Assembly (NCBI GenBank): GCA_963746775.1
Contig: CAVVCK010000001.1
Coordinates: forward strand, 418,435 to 482,434
Direction: 5' to 3'
DNA from: an uncultured bacterium
GTDB taxonomy: Bacteria; Patescibacteriota; JABMPQ01; CAVVCK01
Length of the DNA: 64,000 nt
Every line of letters begins with the position of its first letter. The first letter of the stretch is position 1. The notes beneath the pieces were generated by a model. That model was given only the letters and a program-made list of their open reading frames with translations. It made no database searches and was not told the origin of the DNA. Made by a program: the position numbers and the translations under genes. Positions 1 to 56,305 of this stretch are shown one piece after another.

Positions 1-459
1 CCTTTAATTTTTAAAGGTGGATAACCTTTTTTTTCTAAATATTCTATATTAGCACCCAATTCCATTAGAGCTTCAACTAATTCTTTAATGGGTCTCTCAC
101 GCATTCTCTCCGATCCATTTAAAATAATCTCTTCTGGTACTAAACAACAGAGAGACGCTGAAAATCGCATAGTAGTACCCGCCGCTCCTACATCTATTTT
201 TCCATCAAATTGAATAAATTTACCTCCATTGCCATAAACTATTATTTCTTTTTTATTCTTCTCAATTTTTATACTTAATTTATTTAAAGCTTCAATTAAA
301 ACTTTACTATCATCACTTTCCGAGTATTCTTTTATAACACTTTTTCCCCTACATAAAGCTGCCATAATCAAAGCTCGATTAGTATAGCTTTTGGAACCAG
401 GCATTACTACTTTGTTGCTATTTAATTTTTTTATTGGAATTATTTCTATTTTTTTCATA
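1..459 (-). CDS. aroA: 3-phosphoshikimate 1-carboxyvinyltransferase (EPSP synthase), N-terminal ~153 aa only; gene continues past window start
   Basis: Reverse translation from ATG at 459 gives MKKIEIIPIKKLNSNKVVMPGSKSYTNRALIMAAL..., the characteristic EPSP synthase N-terminus. The reading frame stays open to position 1. Confidence 0.75.
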
Positions 460-480
460 ATTCATATTTCTCTATTTTTT

Positions 481-513
481 CCGTAGGGGCAGAACAATGT
501 TCTGCCCCTACGG
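481..513. repeat. GC-rich 16-bp-stem palindrome CCGTAGGGGCAGAACA-A-TGTTCTGCCCCTACGG; second copy at 30719-30753
   Basis: Perfect inverted repeat read directly from the sequence. The same 31-bp core CGTAGGGGCAGAACAATGTTCTGCCCCTACG recurs at 30722-30752. It lies between convergently arranged minus-strand genes. Confidence 0.8.
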
Positions 514-519
514 AAAAAA

Positions 520-1836
520 TTATTTCTTTATCAAAGCAAAACTAGTCTCATTATTTTTACTATCCTGTAAATCTGAAGCTAGAATATCCAATCCAAACAA
601 TTCAGCACAAATTCTAGGTGCAATCACACCCACTGATTTTGGTAGTTTATTTTGTGATAAGAGTTTAGCTACCGTAGCTTGATCAGTTAATTTCCCCTTG
701 CCATCTTTTTTTGTAATATTGGGAAATTTTTTTCTCAAAGTATCTTTGCATTGCCGCAAGGTCTGTTCATGAGAAATTATTTTTTTGATTTCTGATAATT
801 TAACACCTCTTCTCACCATTAAATGATGAGATATTACATGATCTATAATTTTTACTACCTTACATTCATACTGAGCCAAGGCTTCCATGCTCTCTGTTAC
901 CGCTCCGCCAACAGAATTATATAAAGCCATCACACCATAGTCTGTCTTACCTTTTTCTAAATTCTTTAAAACATTATCCGAATTATATAAATATTTTATT
1001 TTATACTTTTTCAAACCAAACTCTTCACTATATTTTCTTGCTACTTCTTCATTAAAACTCCCCTTACCCCCCTGAATTCCAATAATTGGAATTTTATGTT
1101 TCTCCTTTAATAATTTGTAATTTATTTTTTTAAATGATTTTTCTATTTTCCTTCGTACTTTCTCACCATAAGGATTTTTAGTTTGCAAATCATAAAAAAG
1201 CTGTTCGCTATCATTACAAGTCTGATTAATAATTTCATTTAATTTTTTAAAACCTAGCGTATCAATCTTAGTTTCTTTTAAATTTAATTCTCCTAAAACC
1301 CGACCAATATAATGTGCTATACTTTGTGACTGGGAAGCAAGTTTGTCGTGCATATCAGCAGATAATTCTACTACTTTTAAATTTCTCCTTTTAAAATATT
1401 TTTTCCAAAAATTATAACTATCCTTTCTCTGCTTTACTTTGCATAAAGTTATTTTTAAATTCTCTACTCCTTCCTTAATACTATCAGGCCCGAACATAGG
1501 ATGAGTACCAATTATTTCACATGATTTTGGCAAATATTTTTTCATTAAATCAATTGGATATACTTTCACCGAACAAGTATCTAAAATTAGAGCTTTGTCA
1601 TTAATATTTTTTGAATTTTTCTTTAAAAATTGTTCAAAAGCCGATATGGGAATACATAAAAATATCACTTCTTTTTTCAAAGCTTCTTTTATATTCACAA
1701 AATTTACACCTTCGACTCTTTCCTTTGGCACAATTTTGCTTTTATTGGCAACATATACATTAAAATCTTTCTTTAAAAATTCCGCCCAGACTTTGCCGAA
1801 TCTTCCGTAGCCTATTATTGAGATGTTTTTTTTCAT
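520..1836 (-). CDS. bifunctional prephenate dehydrogenase (TyrA-like, N-terminal) / prephenate dehydratase (PheA PDT domain, C-terminal) fusion
   Basis: The N-terminus IIGYGRFGKVWAEFL is the Rossmann motif of prephenate/arogenate dehydrogenases. The C-terminal ~200 aa (KIPIIGIQGGKGSFNEEVA...ALYNSVGGAV...) matches the PDT domain. No ACT domain is evident. Confidence 0.6.
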   Translation of the reverse strand: MKKNISIIGYGRFGKVWAEFLKKDFNVYVANKSKIVPKERVEGVNFVNIKEALKKEVIFLCIPISAFEQFLKKNSKNINDKALILDTCSVKVYPIDLMKKYLPKSCEIIGTHPMFGPDSIKEGVENLKITLCKVKQRKDSYNFWKKYFKRRNLKVVELSADMHDKLASQSQSIAHYIGRVLGELNLKETKIDTLGFKKLNEIINQTCNDSEQLFYDLQTKNPYGEKVRRKIEKSFKKINYKLLKEKHKIPIIGIQGGKGSFNEEVARKYSEEFGLKKYKIKYLYNSDNVLKNLEKGKTDYGVMALYNSVGGAVTESMEALAQYECKVVKIIDHVISHHLMVRRGVKLSEIKKIISHEQTLRQCKDTLRKKFPNITKKDGKGKLTDQATVAKLLSQNKLPKSVGVIAPRICAELFGLDILASDLQDSKNNETSFALIKK

Positions 1837-1954
1837 ATATTTTCATGTCTCCCCTTTAATAAGGGGAGATTAAGAGGGGTTTCGTGGGAAAAATAACAGT
1901 ATTTTTATGCCCACAAAACCTCCCCTACCCCTCCTGATTACAAGAGAGGAAATT

Positions 1955-3112
1955 CTAATATTTCTTACAAAACTCATTAAACTCCCCTAACCCTTCTCTC
2001 AAATCTTTCTCCGAACTTGCAAAAGAAATCCTCACATACCCTTCCATCCCAAAGGCTATACCGGGCACCATTGCAACTTTCTTTTTATTCAATAATTTCT
2101 TACAAAATCTAGTCGAATCCTTATCTATTTTAGAAATATCTATAAAAAAATAAAAGGCACCTTTGGGTTTATTAAAACTAATTTTATTGTTATTATTTAA
2201 AATTTTCTCTACTAAATTTCTTCTCTTTTCAAAAATATTGACCATTTTATTAACAAAATCATTACCGTTTTTTAAAACATCTTCCGCTACGACCTGTGCC
2301 AAAGAACAAACATTGCCAGTTTGATGACTTTGCAATTTGCTTATTAAACTAATTATATCTTTTGAAGTTGCCACATAACCTATGCGCAAACCAGTTAGAG
2401 CATGAGATTTAGAAATGCCATTAACCACAATTACTTTATTCTTTTTCTTCTTCATAAATTGAGCAATAGTGTAAAATTTCTCACCAAAAACTAGCTTTTC
2501 ATAAACATCATCAGTAATCACATAAATATTTTCTTTTATGAAAAACTTGGATAATTCTTGTAATTTCTTTCTAGAATAAACTGCTCCTGTCGGATTATTA
2601 GGTGAATTTAGGATTACTGCTCGAGTTTTATTATTAATAGCTTTTTTTGTTTCTTCTAAATCTGGTCCAAAGTTTTTATCAGTTTTAACTATTTTTATTT
2701 TACCCCCAGCTAATTCAATTTGAGCTTGATAACTTACCCAATAAGGAGAATAAACAATCACCTCGTCTCCGGAATTTAAAATGCATTGAAAAATATTATA
2801 TAAAGCTTGCTTACAACCATTAGTTACGACAATATTTTCCGGTCTATAGGATAATCCATTGTCTTTTTTTAATTTCTTACATATTCCATTTTTCAGAGAA
2901 ACTTCTCCTGTAGTTGCTCCATACCTGGTTTTACCATCATCAAAAGCGGTAGTTAGGCTTTTTTTAATAAATTCAGGAGGCGCCAAATCAGGTTCTCCGG
3001 CTGAAAAATTATAGACCCTAAAACCGAAAGATTTAAGTCTCTTAGCTTCAGCATCTATTTCTAACGTTTTTGATGGCTCTATTTTGGTTACTTTATTGTT
3101 TATTCTTTTCAT
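1955..3112 (-). CDS. class I/II PLP-dependent aminotransferase (aspartate/aromatic/prephenate aminotransferase-like)
   Basis: Motifs NSPNNPTGAVYS and SKSHALTGLRIGY (PLP-lysine region). The 385-aa length is typical for this fold. Confidence 0.75.
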   Translation of the reverse strand: MKRINNKVTKIEPSKTLEIDAEAKRLKSFGFRVYNFSAGEPDLAPPEFIKKSLTTAFDDGKTRYGATTGEVSLKNGICKKLKKDNGLSYRPENIVVTNGCKQALYNIFQCILNSGDEVIVYSPYWVSYQAQIELAGGKIKIVKTDKNFGPDLEETKKAINNKTRAVILNSPNNPTGAVYSRKKLQELSKFFIKENIYVITDDVYEKLVFGEKFYTIAQFMKKKKNKVIVVNGISKSHALTGLRIGYVATSKDIISLISKLQSHQTGNVCSLAQVVAEDVLKNGNDFVNKMVNIFEKRRNLVEKILNNNNKISFNKPKGAFYFFIDISKIDKDSTRFCKKLLNKKKVAMVPGIAFGMEGYVRISFASSEKDLREGLGEFNEFCKKY

Positions 3113-3127
3113 TCTTTAAAAATAAAA

Positions 3128-3148
3128 TACCGGCTATATAAGCCGGTA
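3128..3148 (-). terminator. hairpin TACCGGCT-ATATA-AGCCGGTA with T-rich tract on the minus strand, downstream of the RelA/SpoT-like gene
   Basis: 8-bp GC-rich stem seen in the sequence. On the minus strand it is followed by TTTTATTTTT. Confidence 0.4.
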
Positions 3149-3264
3149 TAATAATAAATTTAAAACAAACCGGCTTAGTCGGTAAAAAAATAGAATTTAA
3201 AAATATTTGAAATTATATTTTTCATAATCTTATTATAATTTTTTATATATTAAAGTCAATTATT

Positions 3265-4611
3265 TTATCTTCCGTTTATTGGCTCATATATATATCCCTT
3301 GGGCAATAATCCTGCTTTTTCTAACCTTTTAAGTTGGTCCGTAGAACCATATCTTTTTATTGGTTTTTTGATTTTTTTATCCGGAATAATTTCACTAAGA
3401 AAATTAGTTTTAATATATTCTTTTATATCATCCTCATTTAGACCGGTCTCCTTGCTTGCCTGTTTGCAAATTAAACACAAATAATACTCTGTAAAAGAAC
3501 CAAACAATCTAGTAAAGGCTGATAATTTTTGTACCCCTTTATAAACAGAATGGTTAGCCATACCTCTTTCATTTTCATTACCGGTAATAACAACTTGTAC
3601 CTCAAAAGACCTTTGCACTCTTACATTTTTTTCTTCCCCATTTTTAGGTAGTTTAATGCGTCCTCTTAATTTTAAAGCTCTAAAATTTTTATTAGAAGTA
3701 TTATTTATTTTAGATATTATTATAGGAATATCTAATTCTTGATCTAAAAATATTTTCTCTAATTGTTTAGTCTGCTCTTCGTTCAAAAACTCTACATTCT
3801 GCACATATTCAGTCTCTGCACCATACTCATCTTTAAAATGACTACCTAAGAAACTTATAAGCTCATAAGCATCTTTTTCCGTTTCAACTTCAAATTTTAA
3901 ACCAATACCATCCCTAACAACTTCATCAGCATTTATTTCGGGATATCTGGCAAACTTAGTTATAATACTATCTCGATTCTTTCCCCTAAAACTAATATCA
4001 ACATCGTTTATCCAATTATTATCAGTCAAAATACTATATTCTTCATATTCTGCATCGGGCGATAATTTTTTGTAAAAATGAGTAACTCCATTGCTATCTT
4101 CTCTAAGTATTCTTCTAAATAAATAATCACTTTCATTGATAAAACCATTCATTTCAGCACTATTAAATTCTCTTTCCGCTAAAACTAAAAAAGATAGCGC
4201 ACAATAATAAGGTGCTAATTTTCTGGAAGAACGAGCGTTTTTCAAAAAATTAACCACCTCAATACCCTTCTTAAATCTTTCTATATTAGTTATATTATCC
4301 GGTAAGCTTAAGTTAAGATAATCAGTCAAATATTCTCTTGCTTCTCCAAAACATCTATTTATTTCATCAATCGCTTCTTCCGTATTATCTACATTGAATT
4401 TCCTTGCCACTAAGTCTGCTAAGTTTTTGTCTTTTATGTCCCCGGGTATAAAATAAGCATCCCCTTCACTAACACTTACTCCTTCTATTGCTATACCATG
4501 ACTTTGAACAACTTTTTTAACTTTTCCTTTATTAAATGCACTAGCATCACGTAACCTTTTATCTGGTTGTATTTCATTTAAAGATATTCTGCTGCTTTCT
4601 CTTTCACCCAT
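3265..4611 (-). CDS. RelA/SpoT-domain (nucleotidyltransferase, small-alarmone-synthetase-like) protein with unique N- and C-terminal extensions
   Basis: Motif order matches the RSH synthetase domain:
- ISFRGKNRDSIITKFAR
- VVRDGIGLKFEVETEKDAYELISFL (compare DLIAIRCVMETQSDVY)
- FKDEYGAETEY
- FEVQVVITGNENERGMANH (compare IEIQIRTxxMHxxAE)
No HD, TGS or ACT domains are present. Confidence 0.5.
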   Translation of the reverse strand: MGERESSRISLNEIQPDKRLRDASAFNKGKVKKVVQSHGIAIEGVSVSEGDAYFIPGDIKDKNLADLVARKFNVDNTEEAIDEINRCFGEAREYLTDYLNLSLPDNITNIERFKKGIEVVNFLKNARSSRKLAPYYCALSFLVLAEREFNSAEMNGFINESDYLFRRILREDSNGVTHFYKKLSPDAEYEEYSILTDNNWINDVDISFRGKNRDSIITKFARYPEINADEVVRDGIGLKFEVETEKDAYELISFLGSHFKDEYGAETEYVQNVEFLNEEQTKQLEKIFLDQELDIPIIISKINNTSNKNFRALKLRGRIKLPKNGEEKNVRVQRSFEVQVVITGNENERGMANHSVYKGVQKLSAFTRLFGSFTEYYLCLICKQASKETGLNEDDIKEYIKTNFLSEIIPDKKIKKPIKRYGSTDQLKRLEKAGLLPKGYIYEPINGR

Positions 4612-4615
4612 ATAT

Positions 4616-4993
4616 TTAATTTATAAAAGCTACCGCTTCAATTTCTACTCTGGCTTCTTTAGGTAAGGCTGCTACTTGCACAGTTGCTCTTGCTGGCGGT
4701 TCATTTTCAAAATATGATCCATAAATTTCATTCACTTTTTCGAAATCAACAAGGTCGGTTAAATAAATAGTAGTTTTAACTATTGATCGCATTTTTGTGT
4801 CCGTAGTCTCTAATATTGCTTTTATATTCTCCATTACTTGACGAGTTTGATTTTCTATAGATCCTTCCACCATATTTCCATCTGGTTTCAAAGGAATTTG
4901 ACCTGATACAAATACTAAATCTCCTCCTAAAACAGATTGTGAGTAAGGACCTATAGCTTGTGGCGCCTTATCAGTTGTAAATACTCTTTTCAT
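4616..4993 (-). CDS. ridA: RidA/YjgF family reactive-intermediate deaminase
   Basis: 125 aa. MKRVFTTDKAPQAIGPYSQSV... and the conserved C-terminal RATVQVAALPKEARVEIEAVA are typical of this family. Confidence 0.85.
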   Translation of the reverse strand: MKRVFTTDKAPQAIGPYSQSVLGGDLVFVSGQIPLKPDGNMVEGSIENQTRQVMENIKAILETTDTKMRSIVKTTIYLTDLVDFEKVNEIYGSYFENEPPARATVQVAALPKEARVEIEAVAFIN

Positions 4994-5011
4994 TTGTTTT
5001 AAATTATTTTT

Positions 5012-5815
5012 TTATACCGCAATATCCCTCTTATTAAACCAAACAGCCCCCACAACAGTACAAACCACAGCTACTCCAATAAATACATAAATAGACAAAT
5101 TATCTATATTATTTTCAATTAAAGCGCTATTTGTATTGTAGTAATAGAAAAATGAGGTATATTTTAAATTTTCCAAATTTTCCTTCAAAGAAGCTGCTAA
5201 ATTTAAAACATACATTAAAATTAATAACCCTCCCGCTAAAGCATAAGCTCTACTTTTTTCTGAAAACATGCCAGAGAACATATAGGATACAGAAAATACT
5301 GCCCAGCCTAACAATAAATTTAAAATAAAAATCTTTACATGATGATCGAAAACATAATCAACCTTGAAAATTTCTGCCAAAGGAATTACTGAAAATACAG
5401 ACATAAAATCAAATACCAATAATATGGCCAAACCTGCTATATACTTTGAAAAATATATTTTTAAACGAGAAATAGGCTTAGCTAATAAAATTTCCGCTGT
5501 GCCTTTTTCAATTTCCCTAGCAATACCGAAACCTGCTAACGATACCATCATAAATATAGCCATCAATGGCCAAACTATACTATAATTTTCTAAAGCTAGA
5601 AAATTTTCAATTTTATCAAAAGAAATAGTTTGGATATTAAAAGCTTTAAAAAATTCCTGAGGATAACTTTCTAATAATTGATTAAATTCAACTGCCTTGT
5701 CTCGAATCGAAGGATACATACTAACATACATCAGCATCATTAAAATTGCGAATAAACAATAGAATATTATAAATACTTTTTTGTCTTTAATTGTCCGCCA
5801 GAAAATAGTGAACAT
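5012..5815 (-). CDS. ABC-2 family transporter permease (6 TM)
   Basis: Hydrophobic multi-span protein. The likely start is MFTIFWRTIKDKK, since the upstream part of the ORF (to 5875) overlaps higA. Partner ATPase at 7076-7951. Confidence 0.55.
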   Translation of the reverse strand: MFTIFWRTIKDKKVFIIFYCLFAILMMLMYVSMYPSIRDKAVEFNQLLESYPQEFFKAFNIQTISFDKIENFLALENYSIVWPLMAIFMMVSLAGFGIAREIEKGTAEILLAKPISRLKIYFSKYIAGLAILLVFDFMSVFSVIPLAEIFKVDYVFDHHVKIFILNLLLGWAVFSVSYMFSGMFSEKSRAYALAGGLLILMYVLNLAASLKENLENLKYTSFFYYYNTNSALIENNIDNLSIYVFIGVAVVCTVVGAVWFNKRDIAV

Positions 5816-5831
5816 AATTTTATTAAAACTA

Positions 5832-6104
5832 TTATGAAAAAGAAATATGTAAATCCGTGCCAAGCGCCTTAGCAAGATGACGTAAAAAAGCTACTGTAGG
5901 ATTATAAGTACCTCTCTCTAAACGTGAAATAGCTGATTGTTTTGTGCCAATTTTTTTAGCCAATTCTGCCTGAGTATAGCCTTTTTCAATCCTTTTTTCT
6001 ATAATCATTTCAATTAATTCAAACTCTGGGCCTAATTCATTATAGGCTTTTTCTATTTTTCTATTTTTGAGTAATTGATCTTTTAATGTTTTATATGATT
6101 TCAT
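5832..6104 (-). CDS. higA: HigA-type antitoxin / XRE-family HTH transcriptional regulator
   Basis: HTH motif GYTQAELAKKIGTKQSAISRLERG. 90 aa. Sits immediately downstream of a decayed HigB/Gp49-like toxin ORF. Confidence 0.7.
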   Translation of the reverse strand: MKSYKTLKDQLLKNRKIEKAYNELGPEFELIEMIIEKRIEKGYTQAELAKKIGTKQSAISRLERGTYNPTVAFLRHLAKALGTDLHISFS

Positions 6105-12792: not shown

Positions 12793-13272
12793 TTAGATAT
12801 TTTTTTTAACTGTAGTAAGTCCTGTTCTCACTAATTCCAAAATGTTTTTATTTTTAATTTTGGATATAATCTTATCGACATTAATATGAGTAGTGGTTAT
12901 TTCTAAAACAATTTCTTTTTTATTTTTTTCTAAAATATTCAAATTACCTCTTTTTTCTATATATTGAGCTAAAACCTTATTGAATCCCTTACTTAAAATT
13001 CTTAAAATTAGCAGCTCTCTTACGTTTACTTTTCTTAAATCAACCTGCTCTATCTTCACGACTTCAATTAATTTATTAATCTGGTTAATAACTTGATCCA
13101 TGCGAGTTCCCCTAACAACTAAAGTAATTAAAGTTCGATCTTTGATGTGAGTTTTCCCAGCTGTAATAGTTTCAATATTAAAATTGCGTCTTCTACAAAT
13201 TGAAGAAATTTTACCTAACACCCCCGGCCTATTTTCCACCCAAATATTAATTATTTCTTTTTTTTGTTTCAT
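12793..13272 (-). CDS. ilvN: acetolactate synthase small (regulatory) subunit
   Basis: ACT domain start IINIWVENRPGVLGKISSICRRRNFNIETI. 4-bp overlap with ilvB. Confidence 0.8.
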   Translation of the reverse strand: MKQKKEIINIWVENRPGVLGKISSICRRRNFNIETITAGKTHIKDRTLITLVVRGTRMDQVINQINKLIEVVKIEQVDLRKVNVRELLILRILSKGFNKVLAQYIEKRGNLNILEKNKKEIVLEITTTHINVDKIISKIKNKNILELVRTGLTTVKKNI

Positions 13273-14942
13273 ACCATTGTTTCATTTAATGAAGCACCAG
13301 GTGAAACCATAGGAAAAACGTTATCTTCACTTTTAATCACAAATTCATTTATAATCGGACCTTTTCTATTTCTTGATTTTCTAATATTTTCACAAGCTTC
13401 TTTCAAATTTTTTGATTTGTAAAATGGGATTTTATAACCTTGAGCAATTTTTCCAAAATCAGGATTCAGGAGCTTAGTTCCTGAATAATTTTTATTATAA
13501 AACATTTCTTGCCACTGGCGCACCATGCCTAAATAGCCATTATTGAAAACAGCTATTTTTACATCTAGATTTTCCTGCATTATGGTTCCCAACTCTTGGA
13601 TATTCATTTGAAATCCGCCATCACCCATTAAAGCCCATACTTCTGATCGAGGCTTAGCAAATTTAGCTCCGACTGAAGCCGGCAGACTATAGCCCATACA
13701 ACCAAGACCGCCAGAAGATAATAACTTTGGCTTGGAAAATTGATAATGTTGAGCAGTCCACATTTGATTTTGACCAACATCAGAAACAACTAAAGCTTCT
13801 CCTATGGTTTGTTTATAAATTTCATTAATAACATGCTTAGCCCGCATCTGACCTTTTTTATCTTCTCTGTCGTCAAAAGCTTTAATTGGATTTTTCTTTT
13901 GCCAATCCTTTATTTTCTTAAACCAATCAGCATTTTTATTTGATTTAACTTCCTTATTAATTTCTCTTAATGCTCGCTTGGCATCACATAAAATTGGTAC
14001 ATCAACTACAGTATTTTTACCAATTTCAGCAGCATCGATATCTATATGAATTACTTTGGCATCCTTGGCAAATTCTTCTAGTCTTCCGGTAATTCTGTCA
14101 TCAAATCGCAAGCCAATTCCCATAATAAGATCGGCGTTATGAACAGCAAAATTAGCATAAGCCATGCCATGCATGCCTAGCATACCAAAATTTAATTTAT
14201 GGCTGTCGGGAAAAGCTCCCATACCAAGTAAAGTAGTAATTACTGGAATATTAGCCTTTTCAGCTAAATTTTTTAATTTCTTTTCAGCCCCAGATATAAC
14301 TACTCCATGCCCAGTTAATATAATGGGGCGTTTTGATTGGTTAATTAATTTAGCAGTTTTATTAATTATGTCTTTAGTTATTACATGGCAAGGATTATAG
14401 CCTGGTAAATTTATATTTTTGGGATATAAAAATGATTTTACTTCTTCCTTAGAAACATCAACTGGAATATCAATTAAAACTGGTCCAGGCCTGCCCGAAT
14501 TCGCAATATAGAAAGCCTCTTTGATAACGCGGGGTAGGTCACGAACTGAGTCAACATAATAATTATGTTTAGTGATAGGCTGAGTAATACCAGTTATATC
14601 TACTTCTTGAAAAGCATCAGTACCACCAACAGAAGTTGCCACCTGGCCGGTAATAGCTACCATAGGCACAGAGTCCAAATAAGCATTAGCAATACCCGAT
14701 ACTAAATTAGTAGCTCCGGGACCAGAGGTAGATAGGCATACTCCAACTTTTTTTGATGCCCGAGCATATCCATCAGCCGCCATAGCAGCACCTTGCTCAT
14801 TTCTAACTAAAACATGCTTTATTTTCTTAGCATATTTAGGCAAAACATCATAAATAGGAATAACTACTCCGCCTGGATAGCCAAAAATAACCTCCACTCC
14901 TTCTTTGATTAATGATTTTAATAATATATCTGCGCCGATCAT
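13269..14942 (-). CDS. ilvB: acetolactate synthase large subunit (ThDP-dependent)
   Basis: MIGADILLKSLIKEGVEVIFGYPGG N-terminus. ThDP motif GLGCMGYSLPASVGA...GDGGFQMN. 557 aa. Confidence 0.85.
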   Translation of the reverse strand: MIGADILLKSLIKEGVEVIFGYPGGVVIPIYDVLPKYAKKIKHVLVRNEQGAAMAADGYARASKKVGVCLSTSGPGATNLVSGIANAYLDSVPMVAITGQVATSVGGTDAFQEVDITGITQPITKHNYYVDSVRDLPRVIKEAFYIANSGRPGPVLIDIPVDVSKEEVKSFLYPKNINLPGYNPCHVITKDIINKTAKLINQSKRPIILTGHGVVISGAEKKLKNLAEKANIPVITTLLGMGAFPDSHKLNFGMLGMHGMAYANFAVHNADLIMGIGLRFDDRITGRLEEFAKDAKVIHIDIDAAEIGKNTVVDVPILCDAKRALREINKEVKSNKNADWFKKIKDWQKKNPIKAFDDREDKKGQMRAKHVINEIYKQTIGEALVVSDVGQNQMWTAQHYQFSKPKLLSSGGLGCMGYSLPASVGAKFAKPRSEVWALMGDGGFQMNIQELGTIMQENLDVKIAVFNNGYLGMVRQWQEMFYNKNYSGTKLLNPDFGKIAQGYKIPFYKSKNLKEACENIRKSRNRKGPIINEFVIKSEDNVFPMVSPGASLNETMV

Positions 14943-14986
14943 GAGTTAGTTATTAGTTTATAGTTTTTATAATTAGTTAATATTTT

Positions 14987-15172
14987 CTATTCCTCCCCTC
15001 CTCAGCTGAGGAGGGGTGTCTCAAGGGCTAATGCCCGAAGAGACGGAGTGGTGTTAAACGTGTTAGTTTAAATAAGACTTTATTATTTACCACTATCCAC
15101 GAACAACACCCCTATGTCTCCACACTTTTATTAAAAAGTGGGAGACATCTCCCCTCAGCTGAGGGGAGAAGG
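14987..15172 (-). promoter_or_regulatory. structured intergenic leader between ilvD and ilvB: two CAGCTG-centred GC palindromes plus two further hairpins
   Basis: Read from the sequence:
- 14995-15016 CCCCTCCTCAGCTGAGGAGGGG.
- 15148-15169 TCTCCCCTCAGCTGAGGGGAGA.
- 15027-15038 GGGC-TAAT-GCCC.
- An imperfect hairpin ATGTCTCCACAC...GTGGGAGACAT.
All lie within an otherwise ~25% GC spacer. Confidence 0.5.
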
Positions 15173-15184
15173 AATATATAAATA

Positions 15185-16799
15185 TTATTTTGTATAATTC
15201 TTCCTAAATTTCTCCATAAAAGGAGTTGTCTCTCTCTTTGGCACTTTCATTTTCTTCAATCTTTTCTCAATTTCAGCCTGTGATAATTTAACATTCAATC
15301 TTCTTTTAGATATATTAATTTCAATCACATCACCATTTTTTATAATTCCAATTACTCCACTATTATATCCTTCAGGCTCAATGTGACCAATACAAGCTCC
15401 TCTAGTTCCACCGGAAAAACGGCCATCTGTAAGCAAAGCTACTTTGAGACCTGCACCAGAAATCACTGAGGTAGGTGTCAACATCTCCGGCATACCAGGA
15501 GCACCAGCCGGCCCCATAAAATTAACTACTACTACATCACCATTTTTAATATTTTTATTTTCTACCGCCTTCATTACTGCTTCTTCAGTATTGAATACCT
15601 TGGCTGGTCCGCTAAATTCTAGCATATCTTTCTCTACTGCTGTTTGTTTTATAACCGATGAATTGCAAATATTTCCTTTCAAAACGGCAATACCTCCTTC
15701 TTTGTAATAAGGATTATTCAATGGTCGAATTACATCATTATTTTTAATTTTACCCTTTTGAGCTATTTCTTTTATATTTTTTCCATTTACAGTCTCTGAT
15801 GATTTTAAATATTTTTTTAATCTATTTAAAACTGCTGGAATTCCTCCTGCCTTATCCAAATCTTCCATTACATGCTCACCTGCTGGTCTTATTTTACAAA
15901 TATTGAGCGTAGTTTTAGATATTTTATCAAATAATTCCAATGGCAAATCAATATTCATCTCATTTGCTATAGCAGGTAAATGTAGAGCGGTGTTAGTTGA
16001 CCCCCCAATAGCCATATCAACTCTGATTGCGTTTTCAAAAGCAGCTTTAGTCATAATCTTCCGGGGGTAAATATTTTTCTTTACTAACTGCACAATTTTC
16101 TTGCCGGTCTGATAAGCTTGTTTTTTCTTTTTAGGATCTAGGGCTAGAGTTGTGGCACAACCAGTCAGGGACATACCCAAAACTTCTGTCATACAAGCCA
16201 TAGAATTAGCAGTAAATAATCCTGCGCAAGAACCAGCCCCAGGACAAGCCCGGCATTCTATTTTATAGGCTTCTTTCAAATCCATTTTACCAGCCTTAAC
16301 TTTTCCAACAGCTTCAAAAGCGCCAGATACTAAATCTATGCCTTTCCCGTCAATGCTCCCTTCTTTCATTGCTCCGCCAGTAAGAATTATAGCTGGTAAA
16401 TTTAACCTGCCAGCTGCCATAAGCATACCCGGTGTAATTTTATCGCAATTAGTTACCCCCCACCCAACCGTCCAAAGAATGAGATAACATCATAATTTCT
16501 ATATTATCAGCAATATGATCACGAGAGGGCAGTGACAATCTCATTTCCACATGCATAGCGATACCGTCACACACACCCGGCACTCCCCATTCAAATGGCA
16601 CTCCTCCTCCATCTACAATCCCTCTTTTAACTTCCTTAGTTAATTCATTTAAATGAATATGGCCTGGAATTATATCGTTATAGGAATTGGCAATACCAAT
16701 AAAAGGTTTTTTGAAATCATTATCTCTTAAACCTGTGGCACGAAGTAAGGATCTATGAGGCATTGTTTCAATGCCCTTTTTTAGTTTTTCACTTCTCAT
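15185..16799 (-). CDS. ilvD: dihydroxy-acid dehydratase, split into two ORFs by a +1 frameshift in a C6 (G6 on the coding strand) homopolymer at 16455-16460
   Basis: ORF 16449-16799 encodes the IlvD N-terminus ([23 protein letters not shown]...GIAMHVEM...[10 protein letters not shown]). ORF 15185-16426 continues it ([13 protein letters not shown]...). Removing one G restores [21 protein letters not shown], the conserved [12 protein letters not shown] motif. Confidence 0.8.
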
Positions 16800-17699
16800 T
16801 TAATTAACAAAAGTTAGCCATTTATAATATTTTTTATTTTTTCCATTAATAATCTGACTAAATTCTTCTTTTAGTTTTCTAGTAACAATTCCTAAATCAT
16901 TTTTTAATTTCTTCCCATTAATTTGCCCCACTGGTGATACTTCAGCCGCCGTACCAGTTAGGAAACATTCATCCGCTTCCTGTATATTTTTTAATTTTAA
17001 TTTCTTTTCTAATATTTTATAACCTAAATCTCGAGCTAGTTGCATAATAGACTCTCTGGTAATACCAGCCAAAATAGTGCCCAAAGGCGGAGTATAAATT
17101 ATATTATTTTTAACAATAAAAATATTCTCAGCTGACCCTTCGGCTACATAACCTTTATAATCAAGCATAATGGCCTCAGTATAACCTGCCTTCGTTGCTT
17201 CCATTACAGCTAACATAGCATTAACATAGTGCCCTGTTATTTTAGCATCAGCGAAGGTAGACTCCGGATGAATACGCACAAACCGCGATACTTTTAACCG
17301 AGCTGATTCTTCGCCAAGATATGAACCCCAAGACCAACAAGCAATAGCCACATCAACAGGTAAGCCTGTAGGATTTACGCGCAAAGGACCGTGACCATAA
17401 TAAGCAATAGGTCTAATATAGCCGGATTTAATTTTGTTCTTTTTAATTAAATTAACAATTGCCTCTTTCAGTTCTTTCTTGTTATAAGGCATTTTCATAT
17501 GTATGCACTTAGCCGAATAAAGCCATCTATTGATATGCTTGTCTAATTGAAAAATTGCCTGACCCTGTTTAGTATTATAAAATCGTATACCTTCAAAAGC
17601 ACCGGTTCCATAGTGCATGGTATGATTTAAAACATGGACTTGAGCTTTGTTCCAATCAACCAGTTTGCCATTAAACCAAATTTTTGATGTTTTTTGCAT
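16800..17699 (-). CDS. ilvE: branched-chain amino acid aminotransferase (fold type IV)
   Basis: MQKTSKIWFNGKLVDWNKAQVHVLNHTMHYGTGAFEGIRFY. 299 aa. Confidence 0.85.
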   Translation of the reverse strand: MQKTSKIWFNGKLVDWNKAQVHVLNHTMHYGTGAFEGIRFYNTKQGQAIFQLDKHINRWLYSAKCIHMKMPYNKKELKEAIVNLIKKNKIKSGYIRPIAYYGHGPLRVNPTGLPVDVAIACWSWGSYLGEESARLKVSRFVRIHPESTFADAKITGHYVNAMLAVMEATKAGYTEAIMLDYKGYVAEGSAENIFIVKNNIIYTPPLGTILAGITRESIMQLARDLGYKILEKKLKLKNIQEADECFLTGTAAEVSPVGQINGKKLKNDLGIVTRKLKEEFSQIINGKNKKYYKWLTFVN

Positions 17700-17700
17700 T

Positions 17701-18288
17701 TTATTCCAAATTAGTATGCTTTCCTTTCATATACTTTTCCGAAATACCAAACTCGCTCATTAGAATGGGAATTATAGAATCAAAATAAATCATAGTGCTC
17801 AATTCAAATAATGTCCCCATGGGCATAATCTTTTTATTCTTTTCAACTAATTGTCTAGCCAAATAATTTTCTGTATCTGATTCTTCTACTTTAGTTTTTA
17901 ATTTAATTTTCACATCAGAAATCTTTCCTATAGAGGAATTTTCATTACTAGTTATAGTTATTATTTTTGATTTTTGGCTTTTGGCCGCTTGAGCTACATG
18001 TAAAACAGAGCTAGTTTCACCAGAACCACTGACAACTAATAAAACATCATTTCGTGAAATAGCCGGCGTAATAGTATCACCCACAAAATATACTTCCTTA
18101 CCTAAATGAACTAAGCGCATAGCAAATGATTTAGCTACCAATCCAGATCGACCTGCTCCAAAAACAAAAACTTTTTGTGAATTTTCAATTATTTCTACAG
18201 CAGCTTTAGTATCTCTCTTAGAAGATTTTGATATAATTGTCTCAATGTTCTTGGTAATTTTCTTGGCATTTTTTATAAAATCCGGCAT
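17701..18288 (-). CDS. hxlB: 6-phospho-3-hexuloisomerase (SIS domain)
   Basis: VFVFGAGRSGLVAKSFAMRLVHLG and SGSGETSS SIS motifs. 195 aa. Adjacent to the HPS gene. Confidence 0.7.
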   Translation of the reverse strand: MPDFIKNAKKITKNIETIISKSSKRDTKAAVEIIENSQKVFVFGAGRSGLVAKSFAMRLVHLGKEVYFVGDTITPAISRNDVLLVVSGSGETSSVLHVAQAAKSQKSKIITITSNENSSIGKISDVKIKLKTKVEESDTENYLARQLVEKNKKIMPMGTLFELSTMIYFDSIIPILMSEFGISEKYMKGKHTNLE

Positions 18289-18306
18289 TTGTTATGAATT
18301 TATAAT

Positions 18307-18963
18307 TTATAATGTAAAATTTTGAATTGATTCTTTAATACTTTTTGCAGCCTCGACTGGATCATCTACCCCTGTAATCCCTCCACCAACTATCACTATA
18401 TCTATATTTTTAATTCCTTCTAACTGGCTTATATTTTCTTGTTTAATTCCTCCGGCAACCACCAATTTCCCACCTAAACCTGATATAGCCTCTGATATTT
18501 CTCTGGTTTTAGAAAAAGTTGTTTTACCCTGTCTTTGCTCACTTATGCCACAATGCACTCCTAATAATTTCACTCCCATCTTAATTAATTCTTTAGACCT
18601 TTCAATATAGTCCCTAACACCAATTAAATCAACTACCGCAATTAAACCATTCTTATTAGCAAATTTTAAGCCATCCTCAATATTCTCTATAGGGGATGCC
18701 CCAAGCATAGTTACATAAGTCGCTCCACATTCCATAGCTACTTGAAATTCAATGTCAGCTACATCAGCTGCTTTTAAATCGGCTACTAAGGGCTTTTTTG
18801 TTTTTTCACTAAACGCTTTTAAAACATCTCTCATCCCACAAGCCTTAAGCAAGGGTGTACCAGCTTCGATAAGATCTACTTCAGATTCTACTTTTTCTAT
18901 CATCTTCAGCGGATCTTCTAAGCTTACATAGTCGAGTGCTAATTGTAATTTTGGTTTTTCCAT
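18307..18963 (-). CDS. hxlA: 3-hexulose-6-phosphate synthase (OMP decarboxylase fold)
   Basis: LQLALDYVSLEDPLKMIEKV...DLIEAGTPL. 218 aa. Confidence 0.7.
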   Translation of the reverse strand: MEKPKLQLALDYVSLEDPLKMIEKVESEVDLIEAGTPLLKACGMRDVLKAFSEKTKKPLVADLKAADVADIEFQVAMECGATYVTMLGASPIENIEDGLKFANKNGLIAVVDLIGVRDYIERSKELIKMGVKLLGVHCGISEQRQGKTTFSKTREISEAISGLGGKLVVAGGIKQENISQLEGIKNIDIVIVGGGITGVDDPVEAAKSIKESIQNFTL

Positions 18964-19403
18964 TATTTATAATTATTTATTTTATTAACTCTATCCTTGT
19001 GTCTTCCACCTTCAAATTCACTTCCCAAAAATCTATCAACTATTTTAGTCGCTAAATCATAATCAATAATTCTTGCACCTAAACATAAAACATTAGCATT
19101 ATTATGTTTTCTTGTCATTTCTGCTTCTTTTTCTATATTACAATGCGCTGCCCTAATGCCTTTTACTTTATTAGCCGCTATACACATTCCAATCCCTGTC
19201 CCACAAATTAAAATTCCTAAACTATTTTCTTCACTTGCTACTTTTTTCCCTAATTTAAAAGCGTAATCAGGATAATCAACTGAATCAATGTTATTTGTCC
19301 CTAAATCTTCAATTTCAATATTTTTATCTTTTAAATAATTTTTTACTTTTTCTTTTAGTTCAAATCCGGCATGATCTGAAGCTATATATATTTTTTTAGA
19401 CAT
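18963..19403 (-). CDS. rpiB: ribose-5-phosphate isomerase B
   Basis: MSKKIYIASDHAGFELKEKV...CGTGIGMCIAANK. 146 aa. Confidence 0.85.
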   Translation of the reverse strand: MSKKIYIASDHAGFELKEKVKNYLKDKNIEIEDLGTNNIDSVDYPDYAFKLGKKVASEENSLGILICGTGIGMCIAANKVKGIRAAHCNIEKEAEMTRKHNNANVLCLGARIIDYDLATKIVDRFLGSEFEGGRHKDRVNKINNYK

Positions 19404-29602: not shown

Positions 29603-29620
29603 ATAACTCACAAAAATATA

Positions 29621-29647
29621 AACCGTCTTCTTTAGACGGTTTTTTAT
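29621..29647 (+). terminator. rho-independent terminator ACCGTC-TTCTTTA-GACGGT + TTTTTATTT
   Basis: 6-bp GC stem plus T-run immediately after the third fibre-like gene. Confidence 0.8.
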
Positions 29648-29698: not shown

Positions 29699-30712
29699 AT
29701 GCTTATTTTAGCTATAGAAACGTTTTGCGATGAAACTTCAATTGCAATATTAAAAGACGGCAAGAAATTATTGTCTAATATTGTTTATTCTCAAGAAAAA
29801 ATGCACGCAAAGTTCGGTGGAATAGTACCAGAAATCGCTGCCCGTAAACATATTGAAACTGTAATTCCCACTATTGATAAAGCCTTAACTAAAGCTAATG
29901 TTAAGTTAAATAAGATGGACTATATTGCCGTAACTAATGGTCCAGGATTAATTACATCACTAATGATTGGCATAGACACAGCCAAATCTCTATCCTTTGC
30001 TCTAAAAATTCCCATAATACCTATCCATCACACAGAATCTCATATTTATTCTAATTTCATTGAAAATAGTGAAATTGAATTCCCTGCTCTAGCTTTAGTT
30101 GTCTCTGGTGGACATACTAATCTTATTTTAATAAAAGATCATGGCCAATACCAAGAAATAGGCTCAACCAGAGATGATGCCGCTGGCGAGGCTTTCGATA
30201 AAGTCGCTAAATTGTTAAATATTGGTTATCCCGGGGGCCCTGTTATTTCAGAAAAAGCTGACATGGGAAATTCCCGAGCTTATTCCTTCCCTAGACCTAT
30301 GATCAATAGTAATAATTTTGATTTTTCTTTTTCCGGACTTAAAACAGAGGTGCTATATTTAGTCCAGAAAAAACATAATAAATTTTCTCCCCAAGAAATA
30401 AATAATATCTGCGCTTCTTTCCAGATAGCTGTCGTGGATGTACTAGTCTCTAAAACTATTAAAGCAGCGACTAAATATAACGTAAAATCAGTTCTACTCG
30501 CTGGCGGTGTATCAGCTAATAAATTATTAAGAAGAAAATTAAAAACAGCTGTCAATCAAGAATTAGAAAAAACTGAATTTTATTATCCAGACTTCCAATA
30601 TTGCACTGATAATGCCGCTATGGTAGCTCAAGCTGCTTATTACCATGTTTTAAATAAAAATTATACGACCTGGGATAAGGTTATAGTTGATCCGAATTTG
30701 AAATTGAACTAA
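29699..30712 (+). CDS. tsaD: tRNA N6-adenosine threonylcarbamoyltransferase
   Basis: MLILAIETFCDETSIAILKDGKKLLSNIVYSQ...HIETV. Kae1/TsaD ASKHA fold, 337 aa. Confidence 0.85.
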   Translation: MLILAIETFCDETSIAILKDGKKLLSNIVYSQEKMHAKFGGIVPEIAARKHIETVIPTIDKALTKANVKLNKMDYIAVTNGPGLITSLMIGIDTAKSLSFALKIPIIPIHHTESHIYSNFIENSEIEFPALALVVSGGHTNLILIKDHGQYQEIGSTRDDAAGEAFDKVAKLLNIGYPGGPVISEKADMGNSRAYSFPRPMINSNNFDFSFSGLKTEVLYLVQKKHNKFSPQEINNICASFQIAVVDVLVSKTIKAATKYNVKSVLLAGGVSANKLLRRKLKTAVNQELEKTEFYYPDFQYCTDNAAMVAQAAYYHVLNKNYTTWDKVIVDPNLKLN

Positions 30713-30718
30713 AAAATT

Positions 30719-30753
30719 ACGTAGGGGCAGAACAATGTTCTGCCCCTACGTAA
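30719..30753. repeat. second copy of the 31-bp GC palindrome (TTACGTAGGGGCAGAACAATGTTCTGCCCCTACGTAA)
   Basis: Core identical to 481-513. Lies between tsaD and valS. Confidence 0.8.
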
Positions 30754-30817
30754 TCAATCTTTACACTCCCTCCTTTATCCGCAATAATAACTTTATAATT
30801 TAAAATAAAATATATTT

Positions 30818-33229
30818 ATGAAACTAGATAAAAAATACAATCACCTCGAATCAGAGAAAAAATGGCATAAATTCTGGGAAGAAGAAAAAATTTACCAATT
30901 TGATGAAAAATCTGACAAGCCTATTTATTCAGTAGATACTCCACCTCCCTATGTATCCGCTGATCACCTTCATCAAGGCCATATTATGAGCTACTCTCAG
31001 GCAGAATTTATTGTGCGCTATAAAAGAATGAAAGGCTTTAATGTCTATTACCCTATGGGTTTTGATGATAATGGTTTGCCGACTGAAAGATTTGTAGAAA
31101 AAAAATATAAAGTAAATAAAAAAAATATTTCTCGGCCGGAATTTATAGACCTTTGCCTTAAAGAAACCAAAAAAGGAGCGGAGACTTATAGAAAACTTTG
31201 GACAGATTTAGGAATTTCCGTTGATTGGTCTAAAACTTATAGTACTATCAATCCCCTTTGTCAGAGCCGATCTCAATGGAGTTTTTTGGATTTATATAAT
31301 AAAGGCAAAATTTATAGAGCGAATAAACCAATTCTTTGGTGTACGACTTGCCAGACTGCTATCGCTCAAGCAGATTTGGAACCTGAAGAAAGAAAGACTA
31401 AATTAGTTCATATAAAAGTTAAAATAAAAGACACGGGTGAAAACTTAGTATTTGCTACCACTAGACCAGAACTTCTACCCGCTTGTATGGGAATATCAGT
31501 CAATCCTACTGATAAGCGCTACAAAAACTTAATCGGCAAAACCGTTATTATGCCTCTAACTGGAGCTGAAGTAGAACTAACAGCCGATAACGAAGGTGTA
31601 GATCCTAGATATGGCTCAGGCGTTGTCTATTTCTGCTCCTATGGCGGTGGCGAGTGTATTGAATGGCTTTCCAGACACAAGGAAGCCAAGCCTATTCATA
31701 TTCTAAATCCAGACGGCAAATTCAATGATAAGGCCGGAAATTACCAAGGCCTAAGCATTGGTGAAGCCCGTAAAAAAATTATAGAAGACTTAAATAAAGC
31801 AGGCGCTATTGAAAAAATAGAAAAACTAAACAATGTTACTCACGTTCATGAACGCTGCGGTACTGATGTCGAATACATTCCCACTAAACAATGGTTTATA
31901 AGACTCCTAGATGATAAAGAAGCTTTCCTAGAATATGGCAAGAAATTAAATTGGTACCCTGAATCCATGCATAAAAAATACATTGACTGGGTGGAGAGCC
32001 TTAAGTGGGATTGGTGTATCTCCAGACAGCGATATTATGGCGTCCCCTTCCCTCTTTGGTATTGTGCTGATTGTGGTGAAGTAATTCTACCCGAAGAAAA
32101 AGATTTGCCCATTGATCCATCTGTAAATAAACCAAATAAACCTTGCCCTAAATGTGGATCAACTAATACAAAACCTGAATTAGATGTTATGGATACCTGG
32201 ATGACTTCATCTATGACCCCCTATATCGTTCGAGATTTAATTGGAAATGATAAGGTATTCCCTACTTCACTCCGCCCCCAAGCCTTTGAAATTATTCGCA
32301 CTTGGCTATTTTATAGCGTAGTTAAAGCTTATTTTCATAATCAATCTATTCCATTCCAAGACGTTATGATTTCTGGACATGGGCTAGATCAACACGGCAG
32401 AAAAATATCTAAAAGATTAGGTAATTATGTTGATCCTAATATTATAATTGAACAATACGGAGCTGACTCTATGCGCTATTGGAGCTGCGGTGCAAACTTA
32501 GGAAGCAATTTAAGATTCCAAGAAGAAGAAGTAAAAGAAGGAAAGAAACTATTAAATAAGCTATTCAATGTTGCCAAATTTTCCTTAATGCACCTCGAAG
32601 AATCAGGAATTAAGAATCAGGAATCAGGAGAATTAAAACCTATAGATAAATGGATATTAACCAAATTGCAAAATACAATTAAAGAATGCACCAAAGCCTT
32701 TGATACTTACGAGTATTCTCGGGTAAAAAAGATTGTTTATGATTTCTTTTGGAAAGATTTGGCTGATAATTATTTAGAAATGGTTAAATACAGGCTCTAC
32801 CAAGAAGATGAAAAAGATCAGGCTGCACTCTACACACTCTATACTTGTCTATTGAATATTGTAAAATTATGGGCTCCCCTTCTTCCTCATATTACAGAAG
32901 AAATCTGGCAAGCTTACTTCAAAGATACCGAGAGTGACAAAAGTGTTCATATAAGCAAATGGCCAGAAGTAAATAAAGATTTAATTGATAAAGAAAATGA
33001 AAAATTAGGCGACTTAGCTATCTTAATCTTATCTCACGTCCGCAAAGAAAAATCTGATAATAATATTTCTTTGGCTAAGGAAATTAAAGAAGTAATAATT
33101 GATTCCAAAGAAAAAGGATTAGAGAATTTTTTTGAGGATTTGAAGGAGACTAGTAAGGCTGGGAGGGTTGAATTTGGGGAGGGCGGAATGGAAGTTGTGA
33201 AGGATGTAAAAATTAAGGTTGGATTATAG
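30818..33229 (+). CDS. valS: class I aminoacyl-tRNA synthetase of the Val/Ile/Leu subfamily, most consistent with valyl-tRNA synthetase (compact, 803 aa)
   Basis: TPPPYVSADHLHQGH (PPP-x-HxGH). ATTRPELLP (ValRS ATTRPETLLGD). WCISRQRYYGVPFP. KMSKS-like GRKISKRLGNYVDP. Assignment to Val rather than Ile/Leu is by motif resemblance only. Confidence 0.55.
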   Translation: MKLDKKYNHLESEKKWHKFWEEEKIYQFDEKSDKPIYSVDTPPPYVSADHLHQGHIMSYSQAEFIVRYKRMKGFNVYYPMGFDDNGLPTERFVEKKYKVNKKNISRPEFIDLCLKETKKGAETYRKLWTDLGISVDWSKTYSTINPLCQSRSQWSFLDLYNKGKIYRANKPILWCTTCQTAIAQADLEPEERKTKLVHIKVKIKDTGENLVFATTRPELLPACMGISVNPTDKRYKNLIGKTVIMPLTGAEVELTADNEGVDPRYGSGVVYFCSYGGGECIEWLSRHKEAKPIHILNPDGKFNDKAGNYQGLSIGEARKKIIEDLNKAGAIEKIEKLNNVTHVHERCGTDVEYIPTKQWFIRLLDDKEAFLEYGKKLNWYPESMHKKYIDWVESLKWDWCISRQRYYGVPFPLWYCADCGEVILPEEKDLPIDPSVNKPNKPCPKCGSTNTKPELDVMDTWMTSSMTPYIVRDLIGNDKVFPTSLRPQAFEIIRTWLFYSVVKAYFHNQSIPFQDVMISGHGLDQHGRKISKRLGNYVDPNIIIEQYGADSMRYWSCGANLGSNLRFQEEEVKEGKKLLNKLFNVAKFSLMHLEESGIKNQESGELKPIDKWILTKLQNTIKECTKAFDTYEYSRVKKIVYDFFWKDLADNYLEMVKYRLYQEDEKDQAALYTLYTCLLNIVKLWAPLLPHITEEIWQAYFKDTESDKSVHISKWPEVNKDLIDKENEKLGDLAILILSHVRKEKSDNNISLAKEIKEVIIDSKEKGLENFFEDLKETSKAGRVEFGEGGMEVVKDVKIKVGL

Positions 33230-35594: not shown

Positions 35595-35626
35595 CGATCG
35601 CTACAGATATTAATCTGTAGCGATCG
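35595..35626. promoter_or_regulatory. perfect 14-bp-stem palindrome CGATCGCTACAGAT-ATTA-ATCTGTAGCGATCG; half-site ATCTATAGCGA also at ~35342
   Basis: Seen directly. Lies between the small membrane protein genes and could be an operator or a terminator hairpin. Confidence 0.45.

Positions 35627-53479: not shown

Positions 53480-56305
<2,826 letters not shown>

Follow-up and report, generated by a model that had tools for sequence, protein, structure and literature searches.

Two double-foot REP palindromes of the GTAG type in a Patescibacteria-like genome and their predicted RAYT partners

A palindrome repeated at two gene ends

The DNA analysed here is a 64-kb stretch from an uncultured, Patescibacteria-like bacterium (contig CAVVCK010000001.1), referred to below as the window. 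At two places between its genes lies the same palindrome of 31 nt, which appears to be a repetitive extragenic palindrome (REP), i.e., a substrate of the single-stranded DNA (ssDNA) transposases known as REP-associated tyrosine transposases (RAYTs). The first copy (482-512) is preceded by tyrA/pheA, a PDH_N+PDT fusion gene on the minus strand (open reading frame (ORF) 520-1836, stop codon at 522-520), and followed on that strand by aroA, the EPSP synthase gene, which starts at 458-456. The palindrome of this copy, once its flanks are included, opens on the last base of the tyrA/pheA stop codon, and the aroA start lies 15 nt beyond its other end. The second copy (30720-30750) is found between tsaD (29699-30712, plus strand) and valS (30818-33229, plus strand); it begins 8 nt past the tsaD stop codon and ends 67 nt ahead of the valS start. 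Both copies therefore sit within co-oriented gene pairs, 0-8 nt after a stop codon, in spacers of 61 and 105 nt.

The repeated sequence, CGTAGGGGCAGAACAATGTTCTGCCCCTACG, is identical in the two copies, which are 30 kb apart and both extragenic, while not a single match to it was obtained in 100 dinucleotide-preserving shuffles of the window. It is built of two 15-nt arms flanking a single central base, so that the opposite strand is identical except for that base. Written out in blocks it reads CGTAG-GGGCAGAACA-A-TGTTCTGCCC-CTACG, with GTAG present on both strands of both copies. Complementarity continues beyond the 31-mer at each site, through sequences that are particular to the site. At copy 1, ATTTTTTC and GAAAAAAT extend it to a perfect palindrome at 474-520 with 23-nt arms (474-496 and 498-520, 100% complementary); at copy 2, ATTA and TAAT extend it to 30716-30754 with 19-nt arms (30716-30734 and 30736-30754, 100% complementary). 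As ssDNA, the predicted folding energy is -25.5 kcal/mol for copy 1 (z of -12.5 against shuffles) and -20.8 kcal/mol for copy 2 (z of -9.6 against shuffles). In a window of 32% G+C, both copies are conspicuous as G+C-rich islands. A Logan contig assembled at k=31 (L224, 1393 bp, containing tyrA/pheA and equivalent to window positions 483-1875) stops inside the 31-mer, as expected if this sequence is repeated. The other end of the same contig lies near a further hairpin, TCTCCCCTTTAATAAGGGGAGA (1848-1869), an observation which suggests that hairpin and 31-mer are both repeated in the sample.

A first-pass annotation of this DNA had described a perfect palindrome present twice, after tyrA-pheA and between tsaD and valS. 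The exact matches, the 15-nt arms around one central base and the named gene neighbours all bear this description out, and examination of the gene ends places both copies just past stop codons. Its two sites were right, although the ranges given for them were 1-3 nt wider than the exact 31-mer. It had also stated that the core hairpin of site 1 has a T-tract before it and an A-tract after it on both strands, which is correct, and that the element is not a canonical intrinsic terminator. This last statement holds at both sites. Indeed, no U-tract follows the hairpin on the sense strand at either of them, the sense-strand tails being GGAAAAAATAGAG at site 1 (minus strand) and TAATCAATCTTTAC at site 2. 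When A/T runs were counted as part of the stem, a scan with the terminator consensus reported a T-rich tail on the plus strand at site 1 and on the minus strand at site 2, i.e., in both cases on the strand antisense to the flanking genes and in neither on the sense strand. Ordinary terminators, made of an A-tract, a hairpin and a T-tract, are present elsewhere in the window (e.g., 3127-3149 and 29620-29642). A consensus scan also placed a promoter-like site downstream of site 2, which could be a transcription-unit boundary. At gathering thresholds, an Rfam scan of the window returned only 23S rRNA, 5S rRNA and one tRNA.

Distribution of the REP family and its link to RAYT genes

Judged from its sequence, the 31-mer is a GTAG-tagged "double-foot" REP, composed of GTAG, a G/C-footed hairpin (GGGCAG...CTGCCC, with three G-C pairs) and CTAC. 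One genome per species was scanned for the frame GTAGGGGCAG-N5-13-CTGCCCCTAC, which yielded at least 120 stretches. Among the matches listed, this frame occurs in many phyla, the hosts including Chloroflexota, Planctomycetota, Cyanobacteria, Bacteroidota, Clostridia, Acidobacteriota, Proteobacteria and one metagenome-assembled genome of Candidatus Dojkabacteria. The inner 5-13 nt of the listed matches vary between genomes and are nearly always self-complementary; GTTTGAAAC was found 18 times and GTTTCAAAC 13 times, along with GTCTGAGAC, AAAATTTT, TTCATGAA, GTCGCGAC and others. Within this same set of listed matches, the inner sequence of the window's 31-mer was shared only by the Dojkabacteria locus (L028).

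A second scan, of metagenomes, required the core GGGCAGAACANTGTTCTGCCC alone and returned 102 sites (101 stretches fetched). Exact GTAG/CTAC was found on both sides of the core at 13 sites, on one side at 52 and on neither at 37, and many of the latter carry near variants such as GTTA/TAAC or GTAC. Since 65 of the 102 sites bear an exact foot on at least one side, the GTAG foot is conserved although the search did not impose it. The placement of the family is mostly extragenic, 32% of REP sites falling within an ORF of at least 150 aa against 83% of random positions. At loci with at most 50% G+C, co-directional and convergent gene spacers outnumbered divergent ones (19 + 9 against 6, and 26 + 14 against 2). 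A T-rich stretch was found within 8 nt after the hairpin at 7-12% of family sites.

Linkage to RAYT genes was assessed by tblastn with the RAYT-like ORF of the window against the fetched stretches (120 from genomes and 101 from metagenomes). A RAYT homologue was detected in 8 of the 120 genome stretches, among the matches listed, and in 8 of the 101 metagenome stretches, which amounts to 16/221 (~7-8%). Since a genome typically has only one or a few RAYT genes, this proportion represents a very strong enrichment. In all 16 RAYT-bearing stretches, the palindrome lies inside the RAYT coding sequence or at most ~250 bp away from it. Where it is intragenic, it is in frame and falls between the HuH strand, which it follows immediately, and the helix ahead of the catalytic Tyr. 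The type found in the window is translated there as VGAEQCSAPT, or as VGAEHCSAPT when it lies the other way round, and it was found in frame between HuH and Tyr in L028, L137, L204 and others. Some RAYT genes (in L026, L212, L189 and L214) contain two to four in-frame copies in addition to flanking ones. The first-pass annotation had proposed a REP-like element as one possible role; the GTAG foot on both strands, the widespread and mostly extragenic family and the RAYT linkage support this proposal.

Double-foot GTAGGGGCAG...CTGCCCCTAC sites were also observed on viral contigs of IMG/VR, in 18 stretches (L234-L251), three of them on one 39-kb contig. No RAYT homologue was found near these 18 sites, a result that is uninformative as to the vector for spread. 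Besides, a full-text literature search for the string GTAGGGGCAGG retrieved only unrelated primer sequences.

The spacer that holds copy 2 was then compared, together with its flanks, in five relatives whose TsaD is 84-91% identical and in which tsaD-valS, or tsaD and the next gene, is kept. Both ends of the spacer are recognisable in these relatives: on the left, the stop codon, which ATTAC follows in L230 and L227, the closest two lineages, and on the right, CTTTACACTC..., which belongs to the region upstream of valS. The REP is absent from the orthologous spacer in all five relatives, and no copy of its core was found in ~55 kb of their DNA. In four of them (L227, L230, L232 and L233), the same spacer holds an element of ~190 bp that resembles a MITE (miniature inverted-repeat transposable element) and is bounded by CCCCTCAGCTGAGGGG-type palindromes, and one relative carries a TTTCCCCTCTT...AAGAGGGGAAA hairpin instead. 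None of the relatives has a truly empty spacer, other small palindromic elements being present, and hence the insertion target could not be delimited exactly. On this comparison, the tsaD-valS spacer is a landing place for small palindromic elements. The 31-mer is specific to the source lineage, a pattern expected of a mobile, dispersed repeat and not of a regulatory site under conservation. ATTAC precedes copy 2 as well as the MITE-like element of two relatives, which raised the possibility of a TTAC-type target like that of IS608; the absence of such a motif at site 1 led us to abandon this idea. A homologue of the MITE-like element is also present in the window itself (~14985-15175, ~190 bp), in the spacer between ORFs 13269-14942 and 15185-16426, with bounding palindromes CTCCCCTCCTCAGCTGAGGAGGGG (14993-15018) and TCTCCCCTCAGCTGAGGGGAGA (15146-15171).

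Partner RAYT, palindromic flanks and competing explanations

The window encodes a RAYT (TnpA-REP) of 209 aa at 60718-61347, on the minus strand. It matches Pfam Y1_Tnp (PF01797) with 26 bits for a cut-off of 23, and its best NCBIfam match is NF047646 (REP-associated tyrosine transposase) with 59 bits, below the equivalog cut-off of 80. Its length and its motifs, MPNHVHG, LWQ / LWQPRFYDHIIRN, FYDHIIRN and YIINNP, fit the signature of TnpA-Y1 subclass 2.4, described in Table 1 of PMC6006769 as NH[IFV]H, WQ and YIxNNP in proteins of 194 aa on average, with a variable insert between HuH and Tyr. In the protein of the window, the insert after HuH holds an in-frame double-foot REP of its own, CGTAGAGACAGGTTTGAAACCTATCTCTACG (60988-61018), which has the same 31-bp architecture with one mismatch and encodes VEIGFKPVST. 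Just upstream of the gene start lies an inverted dimer of REP units (61393-61456), consisting of 2 x AGACAGGTTTTAAACCTGTCT with outer GTAC feet and predicted to fold into one long hairpin of -31.4 kcal/mol. Between this dimer and the start, a small hairpin, GGCAGGTTTGACCCTGCC (61360-61377, GGCAGG...CCTGCC), reads GGAG-GGGCAGG... on the minus strand and is a degenerate relative of the GGGCAG type. Gene, in-frame REP, upstream dimer and hairpin (60718-61456) constitute a complete REPtron of a second REP type, the flanks of this RAYT carrying AGACAGGTTT-type REPs only.

The peptide encoded by the in-frame REP separates two RAYT clades. Homologues of the window RAYT numbered 5174 at E<=1e-10, and peptides were counted in the closest 120 of them. 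ETG[FL]KPVS, as part of VETG[FL]KPVST, was found in 96 of these 120 proteins and [TA]E[QH]CS[VA] in none. A second clade, clade B, was retrieved with a profile of RAYTs bearing the REP type of the 31-mer, and displays the motifs YGLLSKI(I/V)KS(F/Y)K and WQRSFYDHIIR. Among its best 120 members, [TA]E[QH]CS[VA] was present in 88, in the exact form GAE[QH]CSAP in 8, while ETG[FL]KPVS was found in none. The split is thus complete both ways in the best 120 of each clade, and a clade-B RAYT is accordingly the enzyme most likely to use the 31-mer as substrate. The RAYT at 60718-61347 is probably not the partner of the 31-mer, which is of the GGGCAGAAC type. The binding of the palindrome by the RAYT of this window, suggested in the first-pass annotation, finds no support here, this RAYT belonging to the clade with the AGACAGGTTT-type REP. 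A candidate partner is P0129, a clade-B protein of 172 aa that carries VGAEHCSAPT and is 38% identical to the window RAYT. The chances that it comes from the same genome as the window seem about even. More generally, the in-frame peptide (VETGFKPVST versus VG[AT]E[QH]CS[AV]PT) sorts RAYT clades by REP type and could provide a cheap prediction of enzyme-substrate pairs.

We consider it very likely (probability of about 0.85) that the two 31-mers are double-foot REPs of the GTAG superfamily and non-autonomous RAYT substrates, and that their partner belongs to the VG[AT]E[QH]CS[AV]PT clade and is not the RAYT of the window. Under this explanation, the REP in its ssDNA hairpin form would be the substrate of a RAYT, an HuH/Tyr ssDNA endonuclease related to the IS200/IS605 transposases. 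As expected from its family, the enzyme would nick and rejoin REP hairpins, thereby dispersing copies, and it would come from the clade that carries the same palindrome in frame. Transcription of a copy inserted past a stop codon, between co-transcribed genes, would yield a very stable RNA hairpin that lacks a U-tract. By analogy with the REPs of E. coli, this hairpin may delay 3'-5' degradation of the upstream mRNA, or weaken translation termination or coupling. Several points weigh against this explanation. Only two copies of the 31-mer were found in the window and 7 kb of extra flank, and both are singletons rather than the inverted doublets of classical REP families, i.e., bacterial interspersed mosaic elements (BIMEs) or REP doublets forming hairpins (REPINs). 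Furthermore, no RAYT of the matching clade has been placed in the source genome, and the copies could be orphans. To our knowledge, dispersal by a RAYT has been shown in vivo for no REP. That RAYTs mobilise REPs at all is, in the published work, put forward as a hypothesis (PMC3733652 and PMC6006769).

The assignment to clade B has to be weighed against a role of the window RAYT, for which the 31-mer would be a binding or cleavage site, one enzyme spreading both REP types. This RAYT is the sole one in the 71 kb examined, its in-frame REP has the same 31-bp layout as the 31-mer (common frame CGTAG-R-G-R-CAG...CTG-Y-C-Y-CTACG), and the degenerate GGAG-GGGCAGG hairpin lies upstream of its gene. 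In E. coli, base-specific recognition by TnpA-REP is reportedly centred on GTAG. However, the 0/120 and 96/120 peptide counts and their reversal in clade B, the restriction of its own flanks to AGACAGGTTT-type REPs and its identity of just 38% to P0129 make this role unlikely. Other explanations leave RAYTs aside. The very stable G+C-rich hairpin immediately past stop codons, and the terminator-like sites that the consensus scan reports once A/T flanks count as stem, would suit a variant intrinsic terminator, or a terminator of antisense transcription, duplicated by chance. Yet the T-rich tails are antisense to both flanking genes at both sites, the two sites are inside co-oriented gene pairs with spacers of only 61 and 105 nt, the core recurs in RAYT coding sequences and across phyla with a T-tract in just 7-12% of cases, and the relatives lack the palindrome at the same spacer. 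Termination is thus very unlikely to be its function.

A stronger candidate, although we still find it rather doubtful, is that the host keeps the copies as RNA elements, which could hinder 3'-5' exonucleases and so fix how strongly the upstream gene is expressed relative to the downstream one, or could slow translation termination. E. coli REPs located within ~15 nt of a stop codon are said to lower translation. Both copies of the window lie 0-8 nt past a stop codon, between genes that we read as co-transcribed, and members of the family prefer gene 3' ends. RNA-level roles of E. coli REPs have been reported (abstracts of PMC3733652 and PMC3479197) and speak for the same possibility. Against it, the palindrome is not conserved at the orthologous spacer of the relatives, and the identity of the two copies suggests recent spread over long maintenance. 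As for an operator bound by a palindrome-recognising transcription factor, which would regulate aromatic amino-acid and tRNA-related genes, the perfect dyad symmetry and the two copies near housekeeping genes are what it would predict, but the position downstream of genes and not at promoters, and the same sequence in unrelated phyla and within RAYT genes, render it extremely improbable. Considering the 31-mer as a REP, annotators need not read it as a terminator or as a new regulatory signal.

The flanks of these REPs show a pattern of their own. Extension of the palindrome beyond GTAG/CTAC was counted at 123 double-foot sites; it reached at least 3 bp at 19 of them (about 2 expected) and at least 6 bp at 12 (0.03 expected). 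Each site has its own, complex extending sequence, and both copies of the window are extended. A set of related metagenome loci allows one flank to be compared with the other. Most of these loci are single-foot, with a left flank ...CAGAGAATGAT-GTAG and a right flank TTCTGCTCTCTG...; in L124, the right flank has become CTACATCTCT, the complement of its left flank, and in L199 the left flank is CAGAGAGCAGAG, the complement of the right one, with the loss of GTAG. In two RAYT genes (L194 and L198), 13-bp complementary flanks are kept despite changes on both sides. Template switching at quasi-palindromes is established in mutation studies. Our sequence comparisons suggest that hairpin-templated copying of one flank onto the other best explains the site-specific lengthening of the palindromes. 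According to such a mechanism, once a single-foot REP has been nicked at its foot, or a stall has occurred there, the 3' end could snap back on the hairpin and copy the opposite flank; CTAC would be added opposite GTAG, the adjoining host sequence would then be rewritten as its own complement, and a single foot would be converted into a double foot.

The broader idea that double-foot REPs and the longer site-specific palindromes are made by hairpin-templated DNA synthesis, with REPs acting as local mutators that reshape gene 3' ends and spacers, is put forward as a tentative one, which we hold to be possible but not probable. Should flank rewriting prove general, gene 3' ends would be exposed to a modest but genuine source of mutation. 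For the double foot, a published alternative is a deletion within an inverted dimer (REP passages of PMC6006769). Insertion into the loop of a pre-existing terminator was rejected as the main cause of the palindromic flanks, given that complementarity starts at GTAG/CTAC with no loop remnant; it is further disfavoured by the related loci, where one flank is seen being rewritten. The closely related metagenome loci compared above (L124, L145, L160, L168, L172, L177, L179, L199, L208-L210 and L213) have a second hairpin, CTCTGTTGGTG...CACCAACAGAG, after the REP.

Other features of the window were recorded along the way. A 32-bp palindrome, CGATCGCTACAGATATTAATCTGTAGCGATCG (35595-35626), with a 14-bp stem, inward CTAC/GTAG and outer CGATCG, lies just upstream of ORF 35647-36030, and a 28-bp palindrome, TGGTGTATAGACGGCCGTATATACACCA (63034-63061), with 14-nt arms, one mismatch and no loop, is located inside the large, surface protein-like ORF 62056-63966. 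The 23S and 5S rRNA genes (53240-56299) have no adjoining 16S rRNA gene, ORFs being found directly upstream of the 23S gene, and the rRNA genes appear to be unlinked. Two regions of the window (1-5900 and 13000-19400) and the relative L227 are of note for their gene content. The genome looks Patescibacteria-like, with many small proteins of the T4SS_pilin type, and the relatives of its RAYT and TsaD are named Parcubacteria or Patescibacteria. The window contains aromatic amino-acid genes (tyrA/pheA, aroA and an aminotransferase) and the close relative L227 contains branched-chain amino-acid genes (ilvD, Aminotran_4, a LeuA-type gene and a TPP enzyme), both of which seem unusual for Patescibacteria.

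Comparison with known systems

The 31-mer resembles a Rho-independent terminator as a G+C-rich hairpin right past a stop codon, but differs from it by the absence of a sense-strand U-tract, by its position within co-oriented gene pairs and by a sequence common to several phyla and to RAYT coding regions. The subterminal hairpins of the IS200/IS605 insertion sequences IS608 and ISDra2 share with it the recognition of an ssDNA hairpin by a Y1 HuH enzyme and a tetranucleotide by the foot of the hairpin (as described in the transposase passages of PMC6006769). These hairpins, however, form the left and right ends of autonomous insertion sequences, whereas the 31-mer stands alone, with 31 bp and no coding capacity.

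Closer parallels are the REPs and BIMEs of E. coli with their TnpA-REP, and the REPINs of Pseudomonas. Like them, the 31-mer has a GTAG foot and a hairpin, is extragenic and non-autonomous, and would be transcribed as an RNA hairpin, the recognition of its ssDNA by a RAYT being deduced here from the family. The E. coli REPs differ in being imperfect and bulged, and in occurring in hundreds of copies and as inverted doublets, while REPINs are doublets of ~100 nt. The E. coli RAYT also differs, as it belongs to subclass 2.2 (group 2), with the motifs DHLH and YIHYNP (classification part of PMC6006769).

The superfamily of GTAG-tagged REPs, and its linkage to RAYTs in REPtrons, was defined by Di Nocera, De Gregorio and Rocco in 2013 (PMC3733652). 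It has in common with the 31-mer the terminal GTAG, a short G+C-rich stem-loop, the RAYT linkage, occasional intragenic copies and a preference for sites downstream of genes, where the neighbouring ORFs are unidirectional or convergent. In this superfamily, GTAG is unpaired at one end, stems are mostly of 6-9 bp and copy number is high, whereas in the 31-mer GTAG is paired with CTAC, the arms are of 15 nt and two copies were seen in 71 kb. Not all GTAG families are dimeric (PMC3733652), and the double foot may be a collapsed dimer, as proposed in the REP passages of PMC6006769.

The closest match is found with TnpA-Y1 subclass 2.4, which corresponds to RAYT group 4 of Bertels et al. (Quentin, Siguier, Chandler and Fichant, 2018, BMC Genomics 19:475, PMC6006769). 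In its sections on this subclass, that survey describes two forms of REP: "double foot" ones, bearing GT[AG]G on the 5' side and C[TC]AC on the 3' side, and "long" ones, whose foot consists of three G-C pairs. It also reports REPs in frame inside tnpA-REP genes and a family scattered across many phyla. Our case differs from this account by its Patescibacteria-like host, the terms for this group having no occurrence in the survey. It also differs by copies that are singletons and by flanks that lengthen the palindrome, a feature not described in the REP passages of the same paper. On the other hand, the GTAG/CTAC ends of the 31-mer and its foot of three G-C pairs, the in-frame copies, the RAYT signature and the spread over phyla are all as in subclass 2.4. 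The kind of element is thus already described, and our analysis adds to the range of the REP/RAYT subclass 2.4 system a genome that is Patescibacteria-like, AT-rich and very small.

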